From a virus (taxonomy: Duplodnaviria > Caudoviricetes), in IMG/VR virus record IMGVR_UViG_3300001528_000208, positions 1 to 64,000 of that record: a stretch of 64,000 bases of DNA, one strand, 5' to 3'. The notes under the pieces were generated by a model that had not been told where the DNA came from, ran no database searches, and saw nothing but the letters and a program-made list of their open reading frames with translations. Each line of letters begins with the position of its first letter. The stretch's first letter is position 1. Both the position numbers and the translations under genes were made by a program. Of the stretch, positions 3,844 to 41,956 are shown in pieces.

Positions 3844-4269
3844 TTGAATATTGTTCTTATTGGAAAGATTGGAAGCGGCGTTGACGACATTGCAAAGCGT
3901 CTGACGGACTATTTCCGATACGAAGTATCTGATAGTGATGTTGACGATTTCAAAGTCTTTGTTGTTGAACCGTCAGAACTGCGAAAGATGCAGACAGATA
4001 AGGACACGGACTTTGTTTCGTTCTTCGTAACGCGCGGAACCTATAAGCGATTTAGGTATTGTATTGATAATTGCATGGACGAAGAAGAAGTCCTTTCTAA
4101 AATCATGATGGAAGCACACAAGTATGATTCGCTTCACGTTGACTTCACTGTTGAAAACGAAGATAACGACACTTGGTCTGCCGTAACCGAAATTCTTAGA
4201 TGCGTTAAGGATGTGGTTGATTGTTCGCACCAAAACTCTACAAAGTCAGAAAGCTGCCCGCAAGCGTAA
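3844..4269 (+). CDS. degenerate guanylate-kinase-like P-loop protein
   Basis: IVLIGKIGSGVD resembles a kinase P-loop without the Lys; short, NMP-binding part apparently missing. Confidence 0.45.
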   Translation: MNIVLIGKIGSGVDDIAKRLTDYFRYEVSDSDVDDFKVFVVEPSELRKMQTDKDTDFVSFFVTRGTYKRFRYCIDNCMDEEEVLSKIMMEAHKYDSLHVDFTVENEDNDTWSAVTEILRCVKDVVDCSHQNSTKSESCPQA

Positions 4270-6932
4270 TAATCAATAACGATTACGATGCGCGTATAGA
4301 TAATGCTGAATACACTGTTTCGCAAAAAGAAGAAATTAAACACATGGTCATTGATGGCTTTGTTCTTAACGGCGTGAAGTTCGTAATGAGTGAACGAAGT
4401 GCCAGTATGACAAGAAATGCAATCCTTGGCTTTATTGATGCTTCTGTTGCTGGAAAAGTCGATAAGCATATTACAATGGATTTGGAAATGAAAAAGACGG
4501 TTCTTTCAAAGTGGTGCGCTTATCGTGGTCTTATGTTTAGTTCATGCCATTGTCTTGACGGCTGGCATCCCAAGACAATCGTTGTGCCTGACTACGAAAC
4601 CGTAGTTCCACATCAGAAGCTTCGTTGGTTGGTAGAAGAAGAACGCGAATATGCTGACAAGGAAACTGGCGAAAAGCGTGTCTGGAAAACACATGGAATC
4701 GAAGAGGGGTACAAGGACGTTCCGATAAACGTTTTCGACGGGCACGGATTTATTCATCCAGCGCTTGTTGATGAAGTTCGCGACCGCATTGGAATGGAAG
4801 AACGTCCTACGACCATGATGTTGCGTGCGCCTTTCATCAAAGGTCTTGTTAGCGAAATGGACTACACGACCTACTATCACGACCACGATGTTGACTTCAT
4901 TCAAGACGTTTGGGGCAAATGGCATTCTGTCGATGAACCAATGATTGTTCTGACAGTTAGTATGTATAAGGGGTTTAAGTATTTCAAACAGACCGGCACC
5001 AACCAAGATTGGGATAACTACTGGAGTAAATTTCAGAAGTATGGGCACTGCTGGGGTGTTGCCAAGTGGAATTTTACAGAAGAACAAGAACCCGTGTATA
5101 CTCGTGGCAACTACCAGATTCTGCAAGACCTTGACTTGCCATTTGAAGAATTCCAGAAGCTTGCAAGCAAGTCAATGAACTGGGCGGAAAAGATTGTTAA
5201 TGGAGACCCATTTTACACATACTGTTTCCTTGGTCTGGCGAATGATAATCCGAAGCCGCTTAACAACTATGCACGCGCCATCATGAAGAATCCTGAAATG
5301 ATGAAGGAACAAAGTGTTCGCGACTTTCTGAAGCGTCAAGTCAGAAAGTACATTGATAGCATGAAGTGTGGAAAGATTTATCTTCGTGCTTGCTACAAAT
5401 TCCTTATTCCAGACCTAATCATGATGCTTGAATGGATTGGTGGCGATAAGAACCCAAAAGGCGCCCTTGAAGCTGATGAATTTTGGGCTAAGGGTTACGA
5501 AGGTGAACACGCCATTGAACGTAACCCGCATATTTGTAAAAGCGAACATCTTATCCTTAAAGCCAAGCACACCGACGAACTTGAACGCTACTGTGGTCAT
5601 TTGGTGAATACTTGTATGCTGAATGGTAAAAGTCCAAGTCCGCAACGAATGAACGGTGCCGATTAGCACCTTAAAATAGTCCGCCTATGTGGTAACATAT
5701 AGGTTGTACGGCGTGAACCCTTATCAGGGGTGTCAAAGCGACGATTAGTAATCGCAGGAAATGGCGACCAACGCTTTGGCTAACAGGGAAGGCTACTTGA
5801 TAATCCTGTGCCAAGCCTTAAATGGAAGGTCAAGAGACTAACGGTGATGAGTGTAACCGTGTACGGCAGCTATTGATACGCCGCTGGAAGTGCGCCGCCG
5901 CCCTATGGGTGGAAGATATAGTCCACTGTGAGAACAGTGTATGACGGAGATTTAGTTCTTCTGATGGATGAACCCTTATTCCTTGAAGGAACCGATAAAG
6001 ATTGTGCAATCGTTCTTAATCTTGACGAAAAGCTTACTGCGCTTGCGGAAGATGTCACAATCGAAAACATTGCAAGTCTTGTTGAACGAACTCTTGTATC
6101 GTTGATTGGCGAAGATTCAAATGCGGCAACGTGTTATCATAACAAAATCACAAAAAAGGAAAGCCAACAGAAGCGTTACGAAACGTATGTTGATATTCTT
6201 TCGATTGTTAATTCGTTCGCAATCGACTTTGCCAAGACTGGCTACATCATGCAGATTCCGTTTGAAATAGCAAAGTATTCCAAACCATATCCATACTTCA
6301 TGCGATATGTTGGTGAATACTACAACAAGCTGTTTGAATCAATGGAACGTTCGCAAAGCACATACCGTTTTAGTCGTTCACGAAGCAACATGAACCAGCT
6401 TGCGTTCATGATTGAAAAGTTTCACGACCGTGAAATCAAATGGAAGCGTGCAGATGCGTTTGATTACACGATTATGGTTGATAGCGATGTTGAAGTTTTG
6501 CCCGAACATTTTGAAGCTATCGAAAGCGTGTATAAAGACTTCAACAAAGAAATGAAGTATCTTGTCACATTTGAAAACAAGCTTCATCGCTATGATGAAT
6601 TCAAAGACGAACTGAAGGCGTGGGACAAGGAGTCTGCAATGAACTATTACGTTAATTGGGATTCTGTGTACTCAAAGTATAGAAACGAATGCGCAAAGAT
6701 TTGTCCTGACAAGAAAGAACTTGCCAACATCGCAGTTAAGCTGTGTTATGAAAAGTATCCGAAACGCGGAAAGAAGTTTATCTGGTCTTGTGCATCCGAA
6801 GGTGTGCTTGAAAATATCAAACAGGTAGAAATCATGTTGCCTGTAAAAAATCCAACTGGCGAATACGCATACCTTGGTAAGCGGTATGATATGATTGTAT
6901 ATAATGGTGAAACGGTTGGTTTAGACGGCTGA
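4221..6932 (+). CDS. YonO-like single-subunit RNA polymerase (cellular-RdRP fold); spliced, exons 4221-5663 + 5940-6932, about 811 aa
   Basis: FDGHG, RAPFIKG, RNPH motifs; joining the exons restores GADYDGD (DxDGD metal-binding site); position upstream of HU-like and head genes matches SPbeta yonO. Confidence 0.88.
5664..5939 (+). ncRNA. group I intron (276 nt, no ORF) in RNAP gene
   Basis: Exon ends in U, intron ends in G; P7 GACTA/TAGTC; S element AAGATATAGTCC; IGS ATAGTCCGC (5676-5684) pairs across the joined exons. Confidence 0.9.
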
Positions 6933-9634: not shown

Positions 9635-9683
9635 GGCGTAACGCCGCACGCCCGTGCTTGCACGGTATCACATATTTTAGACG

Positions 9684-9706
9684 AAAGCCACCTTCGGGTG
9701 GCTTTT
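9684..9706 (+). terminator. intrinsic terminator
   Basis: AAAGCCACC-TTCG-GGTGGCTTTT. Confidence 0.75.
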
Positions 9707-9728
9707 ACTATTTTAGGAAGGTGGTCAA

Positions 9729-10850
9729 GTGAGAAAGACCAAAACTATGGATAGGTCGGCACCGCTGACCATTGCCGAAGCAAAAGCGAAAGACCGCGAT
9801 ATCCGAAAGAAGAAGTGTCGTTACTGCACAAACGAAAAGGATATTAAGCGATTCTATAAAAGCTACGATTTCTTAGATACTGATGGGAGACTTTCCGTGT
9901 GCATCGACTGCTGCACATACTTGTTTAATTATTTTTATCAGATGCACGGTCGCATTGATATTGCGATTTACGAAGTTTGTCGCTGTCTGAACTATCGTTA
10001 CGATAGTCGTGCATATAGTATGCTGATGAAGGCGCTTGAAAAGAATGGTATGCAGGCGACAGTAAATGCAATCAATGGCGTTGAAGAAGAAGAAACCGAA
10101 ACTGACATTGATAAAGTTGCGGTTAATACAAAAACGTCTTTGTTTGGCAAATACCTTACAATCCTTCAGGGTGTTTATCGTACTAACGAAGAAGCCGACT
10201 TGACGTTCGACGTTTACAAGAACGACCGTCCCGAAGGCTACGAAGACAAGACTACCGACAAGCCTGTTACAGAAGTTATCGAACAAGCCTATAACAAGAA
10301 AATGTCTGCGCTTGAAAAGAAGTGGGGCACTGGCTTTGAAGACGACGATTACGTATTCCTTGAAAACGAATACAACGAATGGGCTAAGACGAAAGACACC
10401 GATGAAAAGGGTGTTGATATGCTTATCAAGGAAGTATGCTTGCAACAGCTAAAGATGCGTAAGACGCGCGAAGCTGGCGATGAACTTAAAAAGTCGGACT
10501 ATGAGACGCTTACCATGCTGATGGATAAGTGTTCGATTACTCCTGATAAGCTAAAAGAAAGTTCCAGCAATAAGTCTACTGCCGCATTTGGCATCTGGCT
10601 TAAAGACGTTGAAACGCTTTCTCCTGCTGAATGGCTTGAAAACAAAAAGCTGTTTAAGGATGTTGAAGGCATTGACGAATACGTTAAGCGCACCTATGAC
10701 CGCGCTGTTCGTAATTATATTGGTATGTCGCGCGATTTCCGCGTCGTAATGGACAAGATGGATAAGGAAGCTGAAGACTTCAAGCCTGAAGATATCAGCG
10801 GCGTCTATCTTGATGTTGATGGTGATGACGATGGCGAGAAACACGACTAA
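9729..10850 (+). CDS. Zn-finger protein preceding terminase (YonG-like, possible small terminase subunit)
   Basis: CRYC...CIDC, KKWG motif; directly upstream of TerL. Confidence 0.55.
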   Translation: MRKTKTMDRSAPLTIAEAKAKDRDIRKKKCRYCTNEKDIKRFYKSYDFLDTDGRLSVCIDCCTYLFNYFYQMHGRIDIAIYEVCRCLNYRYDSRAYSMLMKALEKNGMQATVNAINGVEEEETETDIDKVAVNTKTSLFGKYLTILQGVYRTNEEADLTFDVYKNDRPEGYEDKTTDKPVTEVIEQAYNKKMSALEKKWGTGFEDDDYVFLENEYNEWAKTKDTDEKGVDMLIKEVCLQQLKMRKTREAGDELKKSDYETLTMLMDKCSITPDKLKESSSNKSTAAFGIWLKDVETLSPAEWLENKKLFKDVEGIDEYVKRTYDRAVRNYIGMSRDFRVVMDKMDKEAEDFKPEDISGVYLDVDGDDDGEKHD

Positions 10851-13800
10851 CTACAATCCGTTTGGTAGTAATGCAAATTCTGCGGATATTCGCAAAAGAC
10901 CGCGTGGCATTATTAAAAAGACGGAAATTAGCGAGAGTCGCCTGAAACGAATCAAGGATTGGGCAACGCTATATCGGCGCAACATTCAGCTGTATGCTGA
11001 ACACTATTTTCAAATCAAGACGCTTCACGACTATCAGAAGATGATGCTGTACGAAATTGGTGCGAAAGATGAAATTACCATTTCAGCATCTCGTGCAACT
11101 GCAAAGTCGTGGATTGTTGGTCTTGGCGCTATCTGCATTGCGTCTCTTTATCCTAAAAGCGAAATCGTCATTGTTGCATCGACCAAAGGTCAGGCTGGCG
11201 TTATCGTTGGCAAGATTCAAGGCTTCTACGACGACTATCCGAATATCCAGCGTGAAATCACGAAGATAACTAACAATGAAAACAACCGTATTGTTGAATT
11301 CTTAAATGGTTCCAAAATTACGGTTGTTGCGCTTTCGGATAACTCTCGTGGTATTCGTTCGACCTGTATTATTCGCGAAGAATGCAACAGCATGAAGCGT
11401 AAGGATTTGCTTGACTCTGTTATCGCACCTATGCGCTATGTTCGTCCCGCGCCTTTCCGACGATTACCGCAATACAGCCATCTGACAGAAGAGTCGAAGA
11501 TGATTTCGATTAGTTCTGCTGGATTGAAAATAAACTGGTGGTATCCATACACGCTTCAACAGATTGTTATTAGCGTGTTTGGCGATAAGACTGGTATTCA
11601 GTCTAAGGACAGCACGGTGTTCATGGCATTTGACTATTTGACAAGTCTCGAACATGGCATCAAGTCGCCGCGTGAAATTGCGTCTGAACGTAAAGCGTCT
11701 GACTATATATCATTAAGTTTTATACTTACTTAGTGCGCTACAACGGGAAACCTTGTAGTGTATGTTCCTGAATTGCTGGAAAACCCTTAGAGCTTTACAG
11801 CCACAACGAAAGAATGAAACACGTCTAATCGTGAAGGTTGAAAATTGTAAAGATTGGGCAATCAGCAGCGAAGCCCCGAACAGGGGAACGTTCAACGACC
11901 ATCCGCTGAAATGCGGTTAGGCACAAGTGTGCCGAAGTGGGAACCGCCTAAACCGAAAGGCATGGCGAATGATATGGTCTATACATATATGAAAGTATAT
12001 GCACACATTTAATCGGATTTTTAAAGCTGGACAGCGGAGTAGCTACCGTTTTCTACACCCTTCGTAGAATTACAGCTTTGAAAATAAATATACTTGAAGG
12101 GGATTTATTATGTTATCGGTCAATGAAAGGAATTTGAAAATCGTTGAATCTTATCAAAGTGGCAAAAATTTGAACGATGTGTCCAATGAATTTGGTGTAT
12201 CCGTTGGAACGGTTTTAGCTGTTTTACAAGAAGCAAATGTTTCTATCAGAAAATATAGAAAAGGTCGTTCTAAATTTACGCCAGAACAAGACGCCGACAT
12301 TGTTGAAAGATATAAAAATGGAGAAAAGACGTGCGATATAGCAAAATTATACAATGTTAGCCAAAGCTGTATCGTATATAGACTTCATAGAAGTGGTGTC
12401 GTGCTTGTTACAAAGGTTGACGACTCTGTTTTTGATAAGATAGATAGCGAAGAAAAGGCATACTATTTTGGACTTATCTGTGCGGACGGCTGGATTTCAA
12501 AGCTTGACACGACGCCATATGTTGGACTTTATCTAAAGGCAGAAGATAAAAATATCGTAGAAGGATTTATGAAAATGTTCTGCGACAAGAAGATACGTCC
12601 TGTTAAGCATGACGGTGTTGTTGTCGGCTATCAGGCTGATGTATATTCCAAACGGCTTGTACAAAAGCTTATTGAATATGGCATTGATAATGATAAGTCT
12701 CATACGTTAAAGTTTCCGACTTGTGTGCCAGAAGATTATTTATGCGACTTTGTTCGCGGATATTTTGATGGCGATGGAAGCATTTCTGGCTATCAAACAT
12801 CGTTTGTTGGGACAAAGTGGTTTATAGAAGAACTTATTCAGATTATGTCCAAGAACGCAAATGTTAGCAACAGGGTTACACCTTTTCCCGTAAACGCTGA
12901 TAAGGGGAATGTGATTACGAAGTCTATTGCGTGGTCTGGAATAAATCAGGCAAAAAAGATTCGCGACTGGATGTATAGGAATGGTTCTTCAACGATTTAT
13001 ATAAAAAGAAAACATGACCGATATTATTCCATTGATTAAATGTGTGGGGCGTGTCTAACGAACGCGTCTTACTGAAATAGTTTCTACTGAGTACCAAAAT
13101 TTGCCTTATGGCATTGATGAGAACGCATTCTTTTCTTATGATGACTTTGATAAAGCGCGTGTTTTGAAGCAGGCGTTCTATCCGAAGCGCCCCGAAGAAG
13201 TTGCTTCTGGAAAACAGAAGTATCGTATGCCAAAGGTTGCCGGCGAAATTCGTTTGGTCGGTGTTGACTTGGCGTCTTCTGCCGCTCGTGGTTCGGATAA
13301 CACGGCAATCAATGTCGCGCGACTTATTCCGAAGCGCGGAAAAGGATATGAACGACAGGTTGTGTATTCTGAAATTTCCAATGGTGTTGGTGCTCCTGCA
13401 CAGGCGCTTCGTATTCGTCAAATTATGACGGATTTTGAAGCGGATACGCTTGTAATGGACTTCCGAAATCTTGGTAATGCGATTTTCAATATCATGACCG
13501 ATGTTATCCATGATGATATTCGTGGTATTGACTATCCGCCAATAACGGTTGCTTATCATGAAACCATCGCGCATAAATACGAAGAGTATATGCAACAGAC
13601 AATCAATCCCAATGCGATTCCTTGCATCTATCCTATTTATGGTACTGCCGAACTGAATAGTAAGATGGCAGTTATCTTTAAGGATAAACTGAAGACTGGC
13701 ATGATTAAGCTTCTTGAACAGCCAGACGAAGTTGAAAAGGACTTTGCAAAGGATATTGGCTTTAGATTCTACACTGACGAAGTTGGCGATTGGGGTGGAA

Positions 13801-14084
13801 GACCTTGGTTGCTTGCTCCGTTTGAACAAACTACACAACTTATCAACGAAGCGCTTGCGCTTACTGTATATGTTGTTGGCGGTAATTTCCGACTTGTTGA
13901 GCCGAAGCGCTTGACAAAAGACCGAATCGTTTCTTTGATTTATTTGAACTATTACGCATCCCTTCTTGATACCGAACTGTTGAAGGGATTGAATGACGAC
14001 GATATGTATTCTGCTATTTCAAGTATGAATAGAAGCCTTTCGTCTTCAAGAAACGGAAACAAATTCGGACGATTCTTTAGATGA
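10831..14084 (+). CDS. terminase large subunit; spliced, exons 10831-11713 + 13081-14084, about 628 aa
   Basis: ASRATAKS Walker A, IIREE Walker B, ISSA, nuclease GVDLA and KDR; exon join reads DYISF-STEYQN in frame. Confidence 0.9.
11714..13080 (+). ncRNA. group I intron in terminase gene carrying a homing endonuclease ORF
   Basis: P1 CATTAAGT/ACTTAGTG with U.G at splice site; P AATTGCTGGAAA, Q AATCAGCAG; P7 GACCA/TGGTC; terminal G at 13080. Confidence 0.9.
12110..13039 (+). CDS. intron-encoded LAGLIDADG homing endonuclease with N-terminal HTH repeats
   Basis: YYFGLICADG and FVRGYFDGDG motifs. Confidence 0.88.
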   Translation: MLSVNERNLKIVESYQSGKNLNDVSNEFGVSVGTVLAVLQEANVSIRKYRKGRSKFTPEQDADIVERYKNGEKTCDIAKLYNVSQSCIVYRLHRSGVVLVTKVDDSVFDKIDSEEKAYYFGLICADGWISKLDTTPYVGLYLKAEDKNIVEGFMKMFCDKKIRPVKHDGVVVGYQADVYSKRLVQKLIEYGIDNDKSHTLKFPTCVPEDYLCDFVRGYFDGDGSISGYQTSFVGTKWFIEELIQIMSKNANVSNRVTPFPVNADKGNVITKSIAWSGINQAKKIRDWMYRNGSSTIYIKRKHDRYYSID

Positions 14085-27239: not shown

Positions 27240-30200
27240 TTGCCGGATTTTGAACTTAGATTTGTAGCGGTTCCTGAAATTAAACAGGACGCTGATAAAG
27301 ACCTTCGAAAGCAATGGGAACAGCGTTTCCAAAAGCTTGTTGTTGGTAGGGTGGAAGTAAATGCGGAAATCCCCCAACAGACCTTAACAAAATTACGTAA
27401 TCAGTACGCGCAGATTACAAACCAGATGGGGCAGTCTACTGCCGCCGTTGGACGCGATATTGAAGCCCTTGCCGAAAAGTATGGTAAGGCGTTCGATATG
27501 ACTGGCGTCGCCAGTAAATTTAATATTGATATTACAAAGGCTACGCAAGAACATCTTGCGCAAGTCCGTGGACTTGAAAGCGAATATGTCAATCTTAAAA
27601 CAAAAATGCGCGATGCGTCCCAAACGCTTGTTGGTACGGCGGCTGAAAAGGAAATAGACCGCCTTGAAAAAGATATACAAAAACTTGGTATAGAAATTAA
27701 AAAGACATTCAGCCCAGATGAACTTGAACATTTTAATCGCACAATGGGACAACTTGGCGGCAAGGGCGCCGGTCAAGTTGTTGGCATTCAGGAATACGCG
27801 GATTCTATATCTGGATTAAGAACTCGAATTGTTGAACTCACCGGCGAGGGCGAACGCCTCGTTCGTGTAACACAACAGTGGGATGGAAAACAGTGGATAA
27901 ACGTATCTACGCAGATTCAGGATAGAACACAAAAACTTACTTCTGAATATAAGAAGCTTAATTCGCAAGTAAAGACGTTTGATGCACGTTATAAACTGTC
28001 AACTAATGCAAGTTCCTATATGCAGGAATGGCGCAGTTTTGTGCAGCAACTTGAAAACTTCAATGCCGATGCGCCAGATGCGCGTGCCAAACTTGATAAT
28101 CTTTCACAGTCTTTTGCTGAATTTAAGGGAAAGATTAGTCGTGCAAGGGACGATTTAAGCCTTTATAGAGACCAGCTTAAAGATGTGCGCGAAGCGGAAG
28201 TCGCACTGAAGACCGCACAGCTTGAAAAGGCTGGCGTCAGGGACGATGAAATTATCGGACTTGAACAACTAAGGGATGCGAAACGTGACGAAGCAGAAGA
28301 AACCCGCCGTTCCCTTATGGAAACGGATAAGGCGACTGCCGCAAATGCGTTGTATGTTAAAAGTGAGGACCAGTTAGAAAAACAGTTGCGTGATACAGAA
28401 AAAGAATGGAAAAAGAAAAACAGCCTTCTTAGCAATATCGTTGCTGGTTATCAAGACGCCATTGCGCGCGTTGTAAACTATACTTCTGTTTACCGCGTGA
28501 TGTGGCTTGCTGTTTCGAAATTTAAGGAATCCGTTCAGATTGCGCAAGATTTGAATAAGGCGTTCACAAGTATTGAAATGGTGACACTTGGAACAGCCGA
28601 AGCGACGGAAAAATTGCGTAAAGAATACGCCGATTTAGCTGTTGAAATGTCTGGCACGGTAACACAGGTTGCTTCTGCGGCTGACGAGTGGTTGCGTCAG
28701 GGTAAGACTGCGCAGGAAACAACAGAACTTATTCGTGCATCTATGGTCATGTCGCGTATTGGCGCGATTGAATCGGCTGAAGCGACAACGTATTTGACAT
28801 CTGTTTTGAATGGTTACGAAATTGCTACGGAAGACGTAATGCACGTCGTGGACGCCATGTCTCAAGTTGATATTGAATCCGCATCCAGTGTTGACGACTT
28901 GGCGATTGCGCTTCAGCGTTCGTCCGCAACGGCACAACAGGCGGGCGTATCGTTTGAACGTCTTCTTGGTTATGTTGCCGCTGTTCGTGAAACAACGCAA
29001 CGTTCTGCGTCTGTTATCGGCGAAGCCATGAAGAGTATTTTAAGTAGAATGGGGTCTGTTAAGGCTGGAACGTTCTTGTCAGAAGACCTTGAGAGTGAAT
29101 ATACAGACATTTCAATATACGTCAACGATGTTGAAAAAGTTTTGTCTAAAGTTGGTATTAGATTGCGTGACACAAATAAAGATTTCCGTGATGCGCAAGA
29201 CATCCTTGATGATGTTGCAAAAAGTTGGGCTACATACGACGACTTAACCAAACAAGCCCTTGCGACCGCCATTGCGGGTAAACGAAGCCTTGTGCTCGAA
29301 CATATAGTAATATATGAACCGGCGGTATATAAATTGGTTAGAACCTACTCAAATCGGTGAAGTTCCAGAAGTGGATAATACCGAGAATGATTAAAATACT
29401 TGACAAATCCTTCTTTTTGTGATATAATATATCAAATGAAGGAGGAATATTATGTTATTAACAAAAACTGCTAAAATAAGAATTGGTGGAAACAACAAAA
29501 AATACTATGAAAGCGTTGGTATTGTTGGTAAAATAGGCGACTATGTTGAAATTCCTGTTGAATTGTTGACCAAGGGTAGCGAATATAGGATTGATTATGT
29601 TTGCGACAACTGTGGGAAAACGTTCAATATATCAATGTATGATTATAGGCAAAAGCCAAGAACCGACGGGAAAGACTATTGTCCAAACTGTAAAATTATT
29701 GCGATAGAAAAGACGTGTGTTGAAAAATATGGAACATCGTGCGCCTTGGGAAATGAAGATATTCGTAAAAAGGCATTGAAAACAATAAGAGAAAAATACG
29801 GCGTTGACAATGTTATGGCACTTAATGAAACGAAAGAAAAGATTAAAAACACAAACCTTGAACGATATGGGACAGAAAATGCGATGCAAAATGAAGATGT
29901 AAAATCCAAAATGCAAAACACATATCGTGAACGATATGCTGATAACAATATACCCCATAAAAAAAGAACGGAAACTATTATTCAAAAATATGGCGTTGAT
30001 AATATTATGAAGGTGCCGGAATTTGTAGAAATTGTTCAAAGGAAACTTAATGAAAAAAGCGAAGAAGAAAAAGAAGCAATAAAACAAAAGCGGAAAGAAA
30101 CAAATATAGAAAGATTTGGTGTCGATTGCACTTTCAGGGTAGAAGGATTTTTTGAAGGGTGTCATATAAAATATCATCAGCGACCAGATTGTCCAACATC

Positions 30201-33200
30201 AAAAGGACAGGAAAGAGTTAATAAGATTATCGGTGGTATTCTTAATTATCAAGCCGGGAAATATAATCTTGATATGTATTTCGAAGAAGATAAAATTTAC
30301 GTGGAATGGGATGGCGGAGGTCACTGGTGGTCTGTTTGGCACAAAGAAATGACAATGGAAGAATTTAATTATAGACAAGAAAGACGCAGAACCATTTTGC
30401 TTAACGCAGGAATGAAAGAAATAAGATTTATTTCACGAAAAAACAGAATTCCCAAGGATGACGTTCTTTTAGAAATGAAAGATTATGGATTCCACATTAT
30501 TAAAGATATGGGGTTTGACCAAGTAATATTTGATATAGACGAGTCTGTTGTCAAGTACGGGCTTGTTATTGAAGATTTTAAGTATTTTTAATCATTTGTA
30601 ACGACTAAGTTGTATACTGGTGACAGTATGCACACGGTAGGTGTCCCGAATGGGATGAAGGTATAGTCTGAACTCGTGCGTATAACAAAATGAAGGCACG
30701 GACATAAGAAGAAATTCTTATGCGCCAAACGAAAGTTTGGTCGTAACATATTTAACAAGGCAGAGAGAAAATTTTCTGGCGCTTATGCAGTCGTATGATA
30801 AAGCGCTAAAGCTTGAAGAATCCGCCCTTAACAGTAACGGCAAAGCTATGCAAAAGTACCAAATCTATCAAGATAGCATTGCCGCCAAACAAGAACGCAT
30901 CACCGCGCTATTCCAGACGTTTGTGCAAAACATGGACTTGGAATACATTATTGGCAAGCTTCTTGACCTTGGCGAAGCACTTATGAAAGTGTTTAGCAAC
31001 GATTTGGCTGTTGGAATCGGTAAGGCTACCGCCGCCATAATCATCTTCGCAAAAGCGGTTAAATCCGTTTTGCACCTTATGGAAGTCGCCACATCTGCTG
31101 GTGGCGTAGCAGGCGTAAAAGACATTTTTGCTCTGTTTGGTCTTTCTGGTCTTAATACTGTCGTTCCCCTTATTGTTGCTGCTGTAGCGGCTATCGCTGC
31201 ACTTGTATATATTATTGACAAGTTGCACCATTCCGCCGCTGAACTTACGCAGGAACTTCAGGGGCTTGACAATCAGCTTTCTGAATCGCAGAGTCAAATT
31301 GACGAATACAAAAGCAAAATCGAAGACAATAACAATAGTATTCAAGACCTGCAAAAGTTAATTGACCAAGGCGTTGGCGGTCTTGTTGAACAAGATGAAA
31401 TTGACGGGCTAAAAGAAGAAAACAAGGAACTTGAACGTCAAATTCTTCTTGAACAAAAGCGTCTTGACCTTATTAAAGAACAACGCAAGCAAACGGCAGA
31501 AGAACTGTATGGTAAAAAGTTTGCCGTCGGACAGTATCGTATTGGACGCAGTAGTCGTAGCAGCCGCGCCGAACGCACTGTTGTCGAAGGCACGTCTATT
31601 AGCGTGTCGGCAAAAGACGTCATTCCTGCGTATCAAAAGCAGATTGACAATCTTACCAAAGAATACGAAAAGGCTGCTGACGATGGTAATAATAAACTTG
31701 CCAGCACAATTAAAACTAAAATCAATGAACTTGAAGATGAGCTAACGAACACCGTTATTCCGCAACTTGAACTTCTGCGTGAATATTATCCAGAAGTTGC
31801 AAAAGTTCTTGACGCTTACTACAATTCGCTTATGTCGTTTGGAGAAAAGTTCGACGAACTTACCGGAGATTCTGATAATGCTGAAGGTATTAAGCAGTTT
31901 ACCAATCTTATATCTAAAAATGCCGAAGCATTCCAAGCATATCTTGATGGTGATGATGAAGCGTTAAATAAATTTGCAGACAATCTTACTGGCAAAGCAA
32001 CACCTGCAATTTTCAAGCTTATTCAAGCGGCGAAGGCGCTTGGTATTCCGCTAACAGAACTAATTCGATATTTGCTTAACGCTGCATCCGCTGGCGAAGA
32101 ATTATCTAAGTCCGTTTCGCTTGAATCGCCTGCGGCACAGATTACCAAATTTAAAGATAAAGTAAAATCTGTCGTAGCAGCAGAAGAAGAACTTGCCGAA
32201 ACAGGATATATTTCTGCTGATGCCGCTGAAGCGCTTGCAGAAGCATACACAGACGACGTTTATGACGCCATGGAATGGACAAGCAAGGGATATAAGGTAA
32301 GCAAAGAAGCGCTTGAAGACCTTATTAAAGCACAGCGTATCGAATATGAACTTGCGCTTAACGATGCGCAAAATGCAGCCAATAAAATTGTAAACGCGAA
32401 TATCGACGAAGCGGATTCGTATAACAAGAAAACACAGGCGATTCTTAATGCCATAAAGGCGAAGAAAGAAGATATCTACACGAGCATATTGGCTGGCGAA
32501 CGCGGCTTCGAAGGTTGGGATCAGCTTGCGCTTCTTCGTATGTTACAAGATATTGAAGATGAAGTTGCGACCCTACAGTCGAATCTTGACAATTTTGATA
32601 AGACTGTTGCTTATCTTCGCAAGACATCCACTTCTAAGAAGTCTAACGCCGAAACCGCCTACGAACGCGAAATCCGCCTGCTTGAACACGAACTGTATCT
32701 TTCTGAACAGTTAGCCGACCTTTATAAAGGCGACAATGACGAAGCGAACTATCGCGCTGAAGTCAACAAGCAGATGGAAATTTACATCAAGCTGATGGAT
32801 GCTGCCCACGCTGAAGCCGAACGACTTCGCAAACTTGGCTACGCCGAAACGTCCGAAGAAATTCAGAACTTGCAGCAGGCGTGGTGGGGCTATTACAACG
32901 CCCGTCGCGACCTTGCGACCGGTCTTGCCGACTGGGAAAAGCAAACGACCGAAGACGCCCTTAACGACGTCAAGGACGCAATCAACGACCTTCTTGATGA
33001 AGCCGAAGACCGTTTGAACGACAAGCTGAAGTCACTTGAAGCCAAAATCGACAAAAATGAAGCCATCAAGAAGCTTCACGAAGTATTCTTCGGAATCCTG
33101 AATGATGTCGCTGATGGTATGCACGAAATCGACAAGGAACTTGAAGCTTCCCTGTCTTCCGCCGACTATCTTGACGAACAGCTTCGACAGGCGATGTTCA

Positions 33201-35143
33201 ACGAAGACGACTACAAGAAGATGTCGTCTGAACTTAACCGCATTGCTGATGAAAGCCGCACGCTGTTCAAGGACTATCTGAATCAGCTTGAAATGCTGAC
33301 GGAAGATGAAGTCTATAAGGCAGATTATATTACCAGCGAATTCGAACGTCAGTACAAGTACAAAGAACTTGAATACGACATCGCGCAGAAAGAACTGGAT
33401 TTGGCGAAGGCGCAGACCAAGCTTCAGAACACGCTGATGAACCGCAACGTCCGTATGTATAAGAACGGACAGTGGATTTGGACTGCGGATTATTCTGCCG
33501 TTCAGGAAGCGAAGAAAGAAGTTCGCGACGCCGAATACGAATATCGCGATGCTGAAATCAAGCTGAAGCAACAGGAAATCCTTGATAAGTATGCCAAGCT
33601 GATTGACGGCCTAAACTTGCAGAAGGATGCTGCGCAGGAAGAATTTGACCGCCTGAAAGACTACTGGGAAAAGGTTCAGAAGCAGTTAACCACCGAAGAA
33701 AGCGCAATGCAGCGTCTTCTAAAGGCGATTAACGGCACCGACATCCCGCAGTTCCGCGAAATTATCAATTCTGTTGGTAAGGGTCTTATCGACCTGATTA
33801 ACGGTCTTGGCACTGGTTCTGTGTATAATCCTGCTGGTGGCGCAGGCGGCTGGTCTTATGGTGCTGGTGGCACTATGGTCAGCGGAAGTGGCTATGTCTC
33901 AGGTTCTTCCGGTGGTAAAAACACCATCGGCGCAATCGGTGGTGGTGGCACTTCTGGCAGCTTAGTTCCCGCCTATTCTGGCGGTCAGCCGCACTACAGT
34001 GGTAGCTATGGTGACGATTATGTTGCGCCGCGCACTGATGGCTGGCAACCCGGCGAAACGCTTCCGGGTACAAGCGGCAATGCGCCTGCTGGTACGGAAT
34101 ACGACAAGTGGGTTCTTGCTAACGGTGAGCCGCCGAATCTTACCTATAAAGACACTGGTGTCTATGCAAAGGGCACTTCTCCGTCTATCAAGGGCGCAGA
34201 CATGAGTCGCGACAGCAAGTGGGCTGGTCAGACTGTTGAAAAGAATGGTTACGTTATCAGCTACGACGAACTTGGCTATGCCCGTAGTGCAATTAACGTT
34301 CGTGCTGGTTCGCGCAACGAAAATCTTGCGAACAAGTATCCGCGCGTTGATGCTGATGGTAACATCATGTATAGCAAGTCCGGTATGTGGTCGTCCAATA
34401 CTGGTCGTGGGTATTACTATTCCACTACTGACACGGCTGACGATACCATCTATTGGGATGAAAGCAATCCCAACTATGTTGGTGGAACGCCCAGCAGCGA
34501 CTCGAATCAGCGCCGTTACCTTGAAAACCTTGTTAAAACTGGTAACTATGGTCAACGCGAATGGGCAAAGGCGGAACTTGCCAAGATGGGCACGTCTTCT
34601 GGCGGAAGTTCGTCTTCCAGTTCTTCTGGCGGTGGTGGCGGTTCGTCTTCCAGCAGCAGTTCTTCGTCCAAGGGAAGTTCTTCCAGTTCGTCTTCCGATA
34701 GCGGGAAGTCCAATCAGCAGCGCTATCTGGAAAGTCTTGTTGAATCTGGCAACTACGGTCAGAAAGAATGGGCGAAAGACCAGCTTAACAAGGGCTTGTA
34801 CGATTCTGGTGGTATTCTGGATGGTGTTGGCGGCATCAAGGCGACTATGAAGGATGAAACCATCTTTGGCCCTGAACTGTCGTCTAAGTTGCTTTCCCCG
34901 CAGAAGTCTAAGGAATTCCTGAATTCTGCGACTGCACTTACCAAGATTCTTGATAATTCGTCTGCGCTTAGTTCGATGCTGAATCGTTTCGCTGGTCTTG
35001 TCAGCGGCAACAATTCTGTTGCGAACGACAGCCATGACGTCTACTTTAACGGCAATCCGCTTGGCGGAATGACGCGTGCCGATTCCGTTGCGCTGACTTC
35101 GATTCTGCGCAGATATATTCCGATTAGTGGAGGTGGAAGATAA
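27240..35143 (+). CDS. tape measure protein; spliced, exons 27240-29279 + 30755-35143, about 2142 aa
   Basis: TP901-type core (EWLRQG, T..SASVIGEAMKSI.SR); exon join gives IAG-TRQRENF; TM segments and long coiled coils. Confidence 0.88.
29400..29428 (+). promoter_or_regulatory. intron-internal sigmaA promoter for the homing endonuclease
   Basis: TTGACA-17-TATAAT with TG, followed by AGGAGG RBS. Confidence 0.85.
29452..30591 (+). CDS. intron-encoded putative homing endonuclease (Zn ribbon, KYGV repeats, Vsr/EDxHD-like nuclease)
   Basis: CDNC...CPNC, repeated EKYG/ERYG/ERFG units, D...YVEWDGGGHW. Confidence 0.78.
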   Translation: MLLTKTAKIRIGGNNKKYYESVGIVGKIGDYVEIPVELLTKGSEYRIDYVCDNCGKTFNISMYDYRQKPRTDGKDYCPNCKIIAIEKTCVEKYGTSCALGNEDIRKKALKTIREKYGVDNVMALNETKEKIKNTNLERYGTENAMQNEDVKSKMQNTYRERYADNNIPHKKRTETIIQKYGVDNIMKVPEFVEIVQRKLNEKSEEEKEAIKQKRKETNIERFGVDCTFRVEGFFEGCHIKYHQRPDCPTSKGQERVNKIIGGILNYQAGKYNLDMYFEEDKIYVEWDGGGHWWSVWHKEMTMEEFNYRQERRRTILLNAGMKEIRFISRKNRIPKDDVLLEMKDYGFHIIKDMGFDQVIFDIDESVVKYGLVIEDFKYF

Positions 35144-38765: not shown

Positions 38766-39782
38766 ATGCCTATCTTTAATCAAGGTACTGGTGGCGGCGG
38801 CGCAAGCCTGTCGCCTATTATTGTTGTTTCTGCGCCGACCGGAAGCACTGTTACCTGCAAGAAGGGTTCTACCGTTCTGACTGCGGAAGAATCTTCTGGT
38901 ACTTGGTCGTTTGCTATTCCGGCATATGGCACGTGGACGGTAACTGGCATAAGTGCTGGAACTACTGTCGAAAAGACGGTTGAAGTGACTGCCATTGAAG
39001 TTTATTTCGTCGCACTTGAATTTATTCCAGCCGTTCTCAATAATGCGACATGGGCGCAGGTTAAGCAGGCGTCCGATTCTGGTGTTGCGTCCAACTATTG
39101 GTCTGTTGGTGATACCAAACAGATTACGATTAACGGCAAAGTGTCCGACGGTCTTACGCTGTCGAACTATTCCACCTATGTATATATTATCGGGTTTGAC
39201 CACAACAGTTCTGTCGAAGGAACCGGCATCGCCTTTGGCGGATTCAAGACTGCTGCGTCTGGTGGAACAGATGTTGCGCTTTGCGACAGCGGATACAACA
39301 CAAATAAAACCAGTGGTCAGTGGTTCAACATGAACAATGACAATAGTACAAGCGGCGGCTGGGCTTCCTGCAATATGCGTAACAATACTTTGCCGCTGGT
39401 CAAGGCTGCGATGCCAAGCGACTTGCAGTCTGTTCTTAAGACGACCACGATTTACACGGATAATATTGGCGGTTCGTCTACCGCCGCAAGCTATGTGACT
39501 GCCACGCAGGATGAATTATACCTTCTTGCCGAATGGGAAATCTTTGGTGCGCGCACATACGCCAACACTGCTGAACAGACGAAACAGCAGCAGTATGCCT
39601 ACTATGTCGCCGGTAATTCGAAGGTTAAATACCACCAAGATGGTGGTATTGCCGCGTATTGGTGGGAGCGTTCCGTGAATGCGACGAACTCCAACGCTTT
39701 CTGCCGTGTGAACTCCAACGGTGCTGCCGGCCGTAACAACGCTAATTTTTCGTATGGGTTGGCCTTGGCTTTCAAAATTTGA
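38766..39782 (+). CDS. DGR target: tail receptor-binding protein with CLec-like (DUF6273-type) domain
   Basis: C-terminal WWERS...FC.V...G...GLALAF encoded by the VR. Confidence 0.88.
   Translation: MPIFNQGTGGGGASLSPIIVVSAPTGSTVTCKKGSTVLTAEESSGTWSFAIPAYGTWTVTGISAGTTVEKTVEVTAIEVYFVALEFIPAVLNNATWAQVKQASDSGVASNYWSVGDTKQITINGKVSDGLTLSNYSTYVYIIGFDHNSSVEGTGIAFGGFKTAASGGTDVALCDSGYNTNKTSGQWFNMNNDNSTSGGWASCNMRNNTLPLVKAAMPSDLQSVLKTTTIYTDNIGGSSTAASYVTATQDELYLLAEWEIFGARTYANTAEQTKQQQYAYYVAGNSKVKYHQDGGIAAYWWERSVNATNSNAFCRVNSNGAAGRNNANFSYGLALAFKI
39649..39768 (+). repeat. DGR variable repeat (VR)
   Basis: 120-bp copy of TR with 14 mismatches, all at TR adenines. Confidence 0.95.
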
Positions 39783-39825
39783 CGAAGTCAAATCACATTT
39801 TTAAACATAGCGCGCGAAAGCGCGC
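39778..39825 (+). promoter_or_regulatory. hairpins downstream of VR (DGR homing/cruciform signal)
   Basis: TTTGAC-GAA-GTCAAA and GCGCGC-GAAA-GCGCGC. Confidence 0.65.
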
Positions 39826-39839
39826 GGAGGAACTATCAT

Positions 39840-40394
39840 ATGTCCGTATTAAAACCTAAAAGAAATGAAAGTACCATAGAATACGTTAAACTTGCTAACG
39901 ACTTGTTTTCGTGGACTGTTAATTTCGCATCAAGATTGTCTGCCAGATATTCTCGCCTTTTGTCAGATCGTACAATTAGTTTGGCGTCCGATGTTTTGGA
40001 GTGTTGTATTAAGGCGCACAATGCATATCCAAGTTGCTATGAATATGCCAAGATGCGCGAATTTTATTTTATAAAAGCGCTTGGTTCGCTGGAAGCTTTG
40101 GATGTTATGTTTGCGCACATCTATGAAATTTTAAGACTTAATCCACAGGGCGCGTTTTCTAAATCTAACGGAAAGTCAATTCCTGAAAATGAAGCCGTCG
40201 AAAAATTAGACAAAATGTGCGTAACAATCGGCGAAATATTCAACAAGGAAAAGGCTGTTCTTTTAAAGATAAAGAAATCTGCGCATGATAAGGTGCGGAC
40301 ATTAGAAAAAGATGAAAAGAAGCATATTGAACTTCCAGAAGAACTTGAAGGACAAATGCGCATATCTGATTTTGAATTTGAATTAAGTATTTAA
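39840..40394 (+). CDS. avd: DGR accessory variability determinant (Avd-like four-helix bundle)
   Basis: MSVLK.KR.ES..EY start, helical, located between VR and TR. Confidence 0.8.
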   Translation: MSVLKPKRNESTIEYVKLANDLFSWTVNFASRLSARYSRLLSDRTISLASDVLECCIKAHNAYPSCYEYAKMREFYFIKALGSLEALDVMFAHIYEILRLNPQGAFSKSNGKSIPENEAVEKLDKMCVTIGEIFNKEKAVLLKIKKSAHDKVRTLEKDEKKHIELPEELEGQMRISDFEFELSI

Positions 40395-40439
40395 GACTTA
40401 CTTGGGTATGTTTCTGTATCTTTGTGCCCGTGGGCGTGT

Positions 40440-40559
40440 TTGCCGCGAATTGGTGGGAGCGTTCCGTGAATGCGACGAACTCCAACAATTTCTGCAATGT
40501 GAACACCAACGGTACTGCCAACAATAACAACGCTAATAATTCGAATGGGTTGGCCTTGG
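40440..40559 (+). repeat. DGR template repeat (TR)
   Basis: Non-coding copy with 15 AAY codons (34 adenines) aligned to VR. Confidence 0.95.
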
Positions 40560-40786
40560 ATTCGATAGTATTGGGTTAATCAAAAACTTCTTGAAAGTTT
40601 TACGACCCTTATTAAAGGAGAAGCATTTCCCGTGAAGGTGTATTCCTTCCAAAACAACCCCGCGATACTGTTGCACGGACGCTTCTTGCATGGTCGAAAG
40701 GCAAATTCGATTTCATGTGTAACAGTTATGCAAGTAATCTATGCGGGATTGGTTATACCAAGTCTTGTACACGGGGTATTTTATTT

Positions 40787-41956
40787 ATGAATAGTGCGCA
40801 AAGACACGAATTTCGATATTATAGGCGTAAAGAAAAGCGTCTTTCGAAAAAGATTAAACGATGCGAAGCTATCGGTGGAATAGATGGTGTATTTACATTT
40901 GGCGATTTATATAAATGCGGCAAAGCGTGCTGTAATGGCGTTCGGTGGAAGCATAGTGTGCAAAATTTCGAAATGCACTTGTTTTCAACTACGGTTAAAT
41001 CGTTGGCTGACGTAAAGAACGATAAATGGGAAAGCAACGAATATTTCAGATTTGTTTTAACGGAACGTGGTAAAACACGCGATATTGATGCGCCCAAAAT
41101 TGTTGACAGGCAAATCCATAAAGCTATTACGCGAAACATTCTTTTGCCGTTATATACACCAATGATGATTTACAATAATGGGGCAAGTCAAAAAGGAAAG
41201 GGATTCCACTTTAGCTCAAATGAACTGAAGAAAGATTTGCGTGAACATTTTAGGAAGTATGGTCGTGAAGGTTGGATACTTCTAATTGATTTCAAGAAAT
41301 TTTTTCCAAACGCAAAACACGCAAATATATACAATAATCATGAAGAATTAATTTTTGATGAAAGATTGCGTAGATTGTGTGATTATGTTGTTGGATTTAA
41401 CAATAATTCTGGATTTGGTATGCCGCTTGGCGTAGAACCAAGTCAAGCGGAAATGATTTTCTTCCCATGGAAACTTGATTGCTATTTAACGTGCCAATGT
41501 GGATTTAGTGGATGCGGTCACTATATGGATGACTATTATATTATAATACCGCCAACGATGAATCCGCATGATGTTCGTGCGAAAGTATTATCTTTTGCCG
41601 AATCGCTTGGAATAAGAGTAAATCGCGATAAATCATACTTCGTTAAACTTACAAAATCGTTCCGATATTGTAAAATACGATATCGACTTACGGATACTGG
41701 TGCCGTTAAAACACTTGGTAGTAGACCTGCTTATAGGCGAGCTGCAAGGAAAATTCGTGCATTTAAACGCATGGTGGACGAAGGCAAAATGAAATATGAG
41801 GATGTCTACTGTTCTATGAATTCTATAATATCGTATTTCGATAATTTCGACGACAATAACCGTTCTTTTAGATTGAAACGATTGTTTGTTAAAACGTTTG
41901 GATTTAAATATGACGACCTAATGACATTTAGAAGGAGGGATTTCTATAATGTATAA
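40787..41956 (+). CDS. DGR reverse transcriptase
   Basis: ERGK.R.I, DR..H, KGKG.HF, IDFKKFF, GMPLG...SQ, YMDD. Confidence 0.93.
   Translation: MNSAQRHEFRYYRRKEKRLSKKIKRCEAIGGIDGVFTFGDLYKCGKACCNGVRWKHSVQNFEMHLFSTTVKSLADVKNDKWESNEYFRFVLTERGKTRDIDAPKIVDRQIHKAITRNILLPLYTPMMIYNNGASQKGKGFHFSSNELKKDLREHFRKYGREGWILLIDFKKFFPNAKHANIYNNHEELIFDERLRRLCDYVVGFNNNSGFGMPLGVEPSQAEMIFFPWKLDCYLTCQCGFSGCGHYMDDYYIIIPPTMNPHDVRAKVLSFAESLGIRVNRDKSYFVKLTKSFRYCKIRYRLTDTGAVKTLGSRPAYRRAARKIRAFKRMVDEGKMKYEDVYCSMNSIISYFDNFDDNNRSFRLKRLFVKTFGFKYDDLMTFRRRDFYNV

Follow-up and report, generated by a model that had tools for sequence, protein, structure and literature searches.

A phage tape-measure group I intron that ends in A, with a covarying P10 at its 3' splice site

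The tape-measure gene of an uncultured 105-kb phage is interrupted by a group I intron whose last base is A instead of the near-universal guanosine (omega-G), and this A is kept by the intron's relatives. The intron occupies positions 29280-30754 of a 64,000-nucleotide stretch of viral DNA (IMG/VR record IMGVR_UViG_3300001528_000208; the window), which is the first 64 kb of a single contig of 104,805 bp. By the textbook rule of group I catalysis, one pocket both binds the guanosine cofactor and recognises the terminal G, and natural exceptions to this rule are few. We hold with good confidence that this is a functional, mobile, IA2-like group I intron carrying a DUF7487-type endonuclease gene, and that it belongs to an omega-A clade in which the second step of splicing is directed mainly by the P10 helix. 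Omega-A introns have already been published; the window intron is a well-supported further member of this known rare kind and, with its relatives, forms a small new clade of it.

The interruption divides the gene as follows:

27240..29279, + strand: tape-measure exon 1, 680 codons counted from the first TTG, ending GCC AUU GCG GGU (A I A G)
29280..30754, + strand: group I intron, IA2-like, 1475 nt, helices in canonical order, with A30754 as last base (omega position)
30755..35143, + strand: tape-measure exon 2, 1462 codons plus stop, starting ACA AGG CAG AGA GAA AAU UUU (T R Q R E N F)

Removal of the intron gives a tape-measure product of 2142 aa split at IAG|TRQRENF. In the list of open reading frames (ORFs), the exon 1 frame closes at a stop at 29360, inside the intron, and exon 2 lies in frame within an ORF at 30737..35143, with an in-frame TTG at 30737. 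Pfam PF10145 (PhageMin_Tail) matches exon 1 over residues 465-680 (6.8e-32), up to the end of the profile (201/201). PHROG 4211 ("tail length tape measure protein") matches exon 1 (6.9e-47) as far as profile position 839, at residue 680, and picks up in exon 2 (7.9e-12) at profile position 842, which is residue 3. The tape-measure profile is continuous over both exons, and the step from 839 to 842 indicates that the pieces abut exactly at IAG|TRQRENF, the in-frame junction proposed in a preliminary reading made from the letters of this DNA alone (the sequence-only reading). The intron-less relative L003 (IMG/VR; tape-measure protein 81% identical) reads SIAG VRQRENF here, its uninterrupted site being TCC ATT GCG GGA GTA AGA CAG AGA GAA AAT TTC, and the spacing of AG, six residues and F is likewise found in Bacillus phage PBC4 (IAGRHQLSRF) and in MT835481 (VAGVRQRNVF). 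By this alignment, excision of 29280-30754 alone restores the spacing seen in L003, PBC4 and MT835481. At the sequence level the junction is fixed by three independent lines, namely L003, the PHROG continuity, and a 5-bp P1 that abuts a perfect 7-bp P10. It can be drawn one base rightward because 29280 and 30755 are both A, with the mRNA unchanged and the terminal intron base A either way. The intron 3' end reads ...CAUAUUUA, placing A at 30754 as had been claimed, and the 3'-terminal guanosine is lacking here as in all of the ~22 related contigs described below. Its absence does not exclude membership in group I, because this near-universal feature has published exceptions.

The pairings that align the two splice sites involve the following segments:

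29275..29298, + strand: P1 and internal guide, with the P10 guide GCCUUGU (29287-93) directly 5' of GCUCG (29294-98)
30755..30761, + strand: P10 target ACAAGGC, the first 7 bases of exon 2 (Thr-Arg-Gln codons), making 7/7 Watson-Crick pairs with 29287-29293

Helices were placed by hand, and pairs were counted on an alignment of nine distinct ribozyme sequences. Both guide pairings of the sequence-only reading were found as described: CGGGU (29275-29279) pairs with GCUCG (29294-29298), leaving the U29279.G29294 wobble at the 5' splice site, and the guide, beginning at 29287, makes seven Watson-Crick pairs with the start of exon 2. The wobble is kept in 9/9 sequences, and the P1 pair 29276-29297 is G-C in the window and A-U in L162. 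A perfect 7-mer match at one fixed place has a chance expectation of ~6e-5. Moreover, P10 occurs in three versions, all fully paired, which between them show three compensatory pairs: GCCUUGU/ACAAGGC in the window, GUCGUGU/ACACGAC in L007 and a pig-gut cluster, and GUCUGGU/ACCAGAC in L162. Thr-Arg-Gln is constant across these versions, the Arg codon changing synonymously from AGG to CGA and AGA. Since the target bases vary with the guide while the encoded residues stay constant, these bases must serve both translation and pairing, and the 3' splice site is thereby fixed at the phosphate that follows A.

Relatives ending in A were traced through the endonuclease protein and by pattern scans. 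The same intron at the same site, ending ...UUUA, occurs in ~22 contigs of four lineages. These are the window; L007, a 94-kb Logan contig with terminal A at the homologous base; the pig-gut cluster (72 near-identical proteins; contigs of the L142 type), drawn from numerous pig metagenomes in several studies, with at least 17 contigs having A; and the IMG/VR contigs L162, L170 and L171, found by pattern scans, which also have a terminal A. Short contigs from RNA and wastewater runs do not differ from the window at 30754, a weak observation as they end near the site. The comparison of homologous introns, in which G at 30754 would have spoken against a natural omega-A, thus gave A in every case. 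Between lineages the 3' tail differs by a 1-nt indel (CAUAUUUA versus CAUUUUA), which shows the tail to be non-coding. A 16-mer scan of metagenome contigs gave L007 as the only genuine match among the matches listed, the rest being chance; neither megablast nor blastn matched the intron or its halves to named phages, two pattern scans of GTDB genomes for prophage copies gave none, and no second copy turned up when both halves were searched by blastn against the whole 104.8-kb genome.

In comparisons among the window, L007 and L142, identity is 93-98% in the ribozyme halves and 68-75% in the flanking exons. So wide a margin over the exons, and likewise over the endonuclease gene, is a sign of strong selection on the RNA. 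On these comparisons, omega-A is a conserved natural exception and not an error or a one-off defect, and the introns that carry it make up a small clade in gut and wastewater phages. Of the three readings offered from the sequence alone, the conserved A and the covarying P10 favour the one given first, in which a phage intron with a natural omega-A has a strong P10.

The remainder of the ribozyme has the anatomy of a group I core:

29301..29339, + strand: P2 (29301-06/29311-16, GUAA loop) and P2.1 (29317-22/29334-39)
29343..29393, + strand: P3 5' strand (29343-49), P4 (29354-58/29380-84), P5 (29364-67/29372-75) and P6 5' strand (29386-93)
30589..30607, + strand: P6 3' strand (30589-96) and P7 5' strand (A30601, bulged C30602, GACUA 30603-07)
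30612-19/30624-31, + strand: P7.1 hairpin with GUGA loop
30636..30656, + strand: P3 3' strand (30636-42) and P8 (30643-47/30652-56)
..30669, + strand: J8/7 GAAGGUA and P7 3' strand (UAGUC 30664-68 plus U30669)
from 30670, + strand: J7/9 GAAC, with the P9.0 partner AA at 30671-72
30675..30741, + strand: P9 (30675-79/30696-700), P9.1 (30703-10/30715-22, GAAA loop) and P9.2 (30724-30/30735-41, GAAA loop)
..30754, + strand: intron 3' tail UCGUAACAUAUUUA, containing the P9.0 UU and the terminal A30754

P1 to P10 follow one another in canonical order, with a P3/P7 pseudoknot supported by covariation in P3, and compensatory changes were counted in P1 (1), P10 (3), P2 (1), P2.1 (1), P3 (3), P6 (2), P7.1 (1) and P9.1 (1). 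The extra helices and their order, judged from the sequence, fit the phage IA2 type. P7 had been called standard in the sequence-only reading, and it is: an A-U pair, the bulged C30602, the canonical guanosine-binding pair G30603-C30668, and then A-U, C-G, U-A and A-U. The core junctions carry the group I motifs AAG(A/G)UAUAGUC (J8/7-P7) and ACGACUA with its bulged base (J6/7-P7) as well as the G-C guanosine-binding pair, at GAAGGUAUAGUCU (30657-30669) and AACGACUA (30600-30607). In the Tetrahymena ribozyme, changing the guanosine-binding pair from G-C to A-U shifts specificity towards adenosine; such a compensating change was looked for in P7 and is absent. A link between the terminal A and the unusual GG of J8/7 (AAGGUAUAGUC) was also considered and dropped, since L168 shares this J8/7 but apparently ends in G (3' end unmapped).

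A sister clade provides the contrast between introns ending in A and in G. A homologous intron with a homologous endonuclease is present in the human faecal phage MT835481.1 (L001) and in the IMG/VR contigs L161, L163 and L166. It lies at the same tape-measure motif and resembles the window intron in an identical P7 with the same guanosine-binding pair, in identical J8/7 flanks, in the P4-P6 motif AUCGGUGAA...AUACCGAGA, in the GUAACA tail, and in the endonuclease gene placed in P6 behind the same promoter layout. It differs in being inserted 7 nt upstream (GUGGU|) and in ending ...GAUUG, with omega-G; its tail ends GUAACAGAUUG, and the homologous window tail is GUAACAUAUUUA. No complementarity was found between the guide extension of the sister intron and its own 3' exon; that is, it has no P10. 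In this one contrast, the terminal A appears to accompany a long, maintained P10 and not an altered guanosine pocket.

The intron also carries its own gene:

29452..30591, + strand: homing-endonuclease gene, 379 aa, in the P6 loop, with its stop codon within the P6 3' strand

P6 is an 8-bp helix that closes this gene, which is preceded by a consensus promoter (TTGACA at 29400-05, a 17-nt spacer, and TGnTATAAT at 29420-28) and by the Shine-Dalgarno sequence AGGAGG at 29440-45. The protein matches Pfam DUF7487 (PF24308; 2.1e-22) and PHROG 12131 ("homing endonuclease"; 4.9e-30), and homologues are located in introns of other tape-measure genes; a search of IMG/VR with the protein returned no relatives. 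With an endonuclease of this family, an activity predicted from sequence, and with both intron-plus and intron-minus alleles, L003 being empty at the site, the element has the marks of a mobile intron. Among the window, L007 and L142 the gene is only 64-65% identical in nucleotides and 46-48% in amino acids. The intron is therefore a mosaic of rates, with ribozyme halves at 93-98% against 64-65% for the gene within P6 (window versus L007 and L142), which reflects either very strong constraint on the RNA or exchange of endonuclease genes between otherwise identical ribozymes.

Together, these features suggest a model for splicing without a terminal G. The first step would be ordinary: external guanosine would bind the canonical G-C site in P7 and attack after U29279, at the U.G pair of P1. 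In the second step, the 3' splice site would be set mainly by base pairing and less by guanosine recognition. The 7-bp P10 would stack directly on P1, using the same guide strand, and place the A30754|A30755 phosphate beside the 3'-OH of the 5' exon, with a short P9.0 (AA/UU) assisting in placement. Exon ligation may be slow or protein-assisted, and a slow reaction could be tolerable as the tape-measure protein is needed in few copies per virion. That splicing takes place in vivo at this junction is what the signs of selection suggest, and we infer from the sister-clade contrast that P10 makes up for, or "rescues", the missing G.

Several points weigh against this model. A change of omega-G to A in the Tetrahymena ribozyme strongly impairs exon ligation, so efficient self-splicing cannot be assumed. 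A single sister clade amounts to one contrast, and the idea of compensation by P10 is to that extent inferential. P4, P5, P7 and P9.0 are invariant, so covariation says nothing about them. Rfam RF00028 (Intron_gpI) did not detect this intron, whether the window was scanned at the gathering threshold, 29200-30850 by E-value, or each intron half separately, and the group I assignment therefore rests on manual structure plus covariation; the likely obstacles for the model are the 1.14-kb gene within P6 and the additional IA-type helices (P2.1, P7.1, P9.1, P9.2). No exon-exon joints were found by mapping at 80% likeness to four RNA or possible-RNA runs, which contained no more than short contigs of the ribozyme 3' halves of relatives and are uninformative on splicing either way, and no public sequencing run contains the phage (the best share of the window's words is 0.14).

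The alternative that a nearby G is the true 3' splice site would give the intron a canonical end at the cost of a small protein indel. The candidates are G30759 and G30760 downstream and G30739, G30740 and G30743 upstream, and two of them keep the frame: G30760 yields IAG-QRENF, as the sequence-only reading had allowed, and G30739 yields IAG-VVTYL-TRQ.... Omega mutants of model introns do use cryptic G sites. Splicing at G30760, however, would remove the Thr-Arg positions kept in all lineages, in intron-less L003 (there Val-Arg) and in the PHROG profile; their codons vary synonymously and covary with the guide, so they are coding, and in relatives with ACACGAC or ACCAGAC the only G is at +5, out of frame. 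Upstream, G30739 and G30740 are paired within P9.2, splicing after G30743 creates a stop codon (GGU|UAA), and the 1-nt indel in the tail leaves no upstream site in frame in every lineage. We regard a nearby G as most improbable. Slightly more room, though still very little, is left for the view that the intron is splicing-dead or decaying, with the tape-measure made as two polypeptides or the phage defective. A terminal A would be expected to cripple the second step, and separate products can be envisaged from the exon 1 stop at 29360 and the exon 2 TTG at 30737. Yet the same A recurs across four lineages, in ~22 contigs drawn from many samples; conservation of the ribozyme greatly exceeds that of the adjoining coding sequence, to a degree that also counts against the defect in an essential gene raised in the sequence-only reading; P1 and P10 track exon changes in a way explained only by selection for splicing; and the phage contigs, at a length of 62-105 kb, are intact in other respects. 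As to a sequencing or assembly error at 30754, the window is a single metagenome-derived contig, but independent ENA, Logan and IMG/VR assemblies all have A at the homologous base, and the probability of an error is negligible.

Two further proposals concern how the A is accommodated. A protein might be needed for ligation, with a host factor or the intron's own endonuclease (as a maturase) holding the 3' splice site in place where omega-G recognition is missing; such dependence would be a variant of the P10-directed model and does not exclude it. An intact endonuclease gene is found in every omega-A clade member detected, and the coral ND5-717 introns, which lack G, splice in vivo (PMC6545197). 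Against it, the sequence bears no sign of a maturase, and the endonuclease is diverging rapidly (46-48% amino-acid identity), the RNA hardly at all; we see protein dependence as a possibility of some substance, well short of an even chance. A little less credible is a stronger form of the P10 model, in which the omega-A clade would be a natural ribozyme class that performs the second step without the guanosine-binding site, selects its 3' splice site purely by an obligatory long P10, and possibly pairs the terminal A with U30669 in an extended P9.0. The A would then be adaptive, and its benefit may lie, for example, in keeping down hydrolysis at the 3' splice site, intron circularisation or reverse splicing, or in throttling tape-measure output; we think this doubtful as a whole.

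Two published introns serve as precedents. The hexacoral mitochondrial ND5-717 intron lacks a terminal G, in agreement with the statement in the sequence-only reading that omega-A is reported for some coral mitochondrial ND5 introns, and its exons are perfectly ligated in vivo at low efficiency (PMC6545197). Like the window intron, it sits in an essential protein-coding gene and its missing G is conserved over a clade; in contrast, it is organellar, giant (with genes in P8), vertically inherited, devoid of a homing endonuclease, and spliced inefficiently with back-splicing (PMC6545197). The Coxiella burnetii 23S rRNA intron Cbu.L1917 lacks a canonical omega-G and is described in the title of the original report as self-splicing (Raghavan et al. 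2007, J Bacteriol 189:6572, cited in PMC3428280). To judge from that citation it is likewise a group I intron of the bacterial world without omega-G (PMC3428280), but it resides in a bacterial rRNA gene and not a phage protein gene, and is of another subgroup, the two Coxiella introns being IB2 and IA3 (PMC10136302). Closer in location are the tape-measure introns TMP-IVS1/2/3 of Bacillus cereus-group prophages, which the parts of the report consulted describe as retargeted through P1 and P10 changes (PMC2504315). As described there, they are IA-type, share the host gene, and have related cores at neighbouring sites, some with homing endonucleases (PMC2504315). They differ in that those parts report no departure from terminal G and give the endonucleases as GIY-YIG or HNH, not DUF7487 (PMC2504315), and blastn against named phages detected no similarity to the window intron. 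We found no published phage example of an omega-A intron in a literature survey of incomplete coverage.

The clade offers a compact bacterial-type ribozyme, ~335 nt without its endonuclease gene, that combines an unchanged guanosine pocket with a covarying 7-bp P10. Set beside the sister introns, it constitutes a natural experiment, omega-A with P10 versus omega-G without P10, on how far pairing can replace omega-G in 3' splice-site selection. There is also a consequence for annotation: gene callers and intron finders that require a terminal G or rely on RF00028 will misannotate such tape-measure genes as two ORFs.

The motif A-IAG-TRQRE-F is an intron hot spot of tape-measure genes, with other group I introns ~-20, -9, -7, 0 and +28 nt from the window site (L162 ~9680-9842; L009 2247 and 3790; L001 1046; L003 ~4921; sites other than the window's read by eye). 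At ~9820-9842 of L162, twin group I introns, the upstream one ending in G and the downstream one in A, surround a mini-exon of ~20 nt, (G)UGCAACCGCUAUUGCAGGU. The arrangement is reminiscent of phage Twort orf142, with its 23-nt exon, and of Coxiella 23S rRNA, with its 34-nt exon, where exon skipping is reported (PMC10136302). At ~4640-4830 of L004, another relative, the tape-measure gene is interrupted ~84 codons further upstream by a different intron, whose ORF is rich in zinc fingers and again shows the TTGACA...TATAAT promoter arrangement.

Other genes of the window contain further candidates. An ORF-less group I intron at 11718-12001 (+) is scored by RF00028 at 62 bits; the region 10810-14084 (+) comprises a TerL ATPase-domain ORF (10810-11733), this intron, an HTH and LAGLIDADG ORF (12110-13039), and an ORF at 13101-14084, and the large terminase gene thus seems to be intron-split too. 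ORFs at 4221-5666 and 5928-6932 (+) match the Pfam RdRP profile PF05183 over 51-360 and 436-580, both weakly, and the gap of ~260 nt between them (5667-5927) ends near a group I J8/7-P7 motif, GGAAGAUAUAGUCC, at ~5916; it is probably a third group I intron, in a YonO/RdRP-like RNA polymerase gene. Finally, an RT-2 RNA motif (RF03077; 104.7 bits) spans 40571-40797 and runs into the beginning of a reverse-transcriptase ORF (RVT_1, 40715-41956, +), upstream of which lies a DUF6273 ORF (38766-39782, +), and the region 38766-41956 may be a diversity-generating or other reverse-transcriptase cassette.

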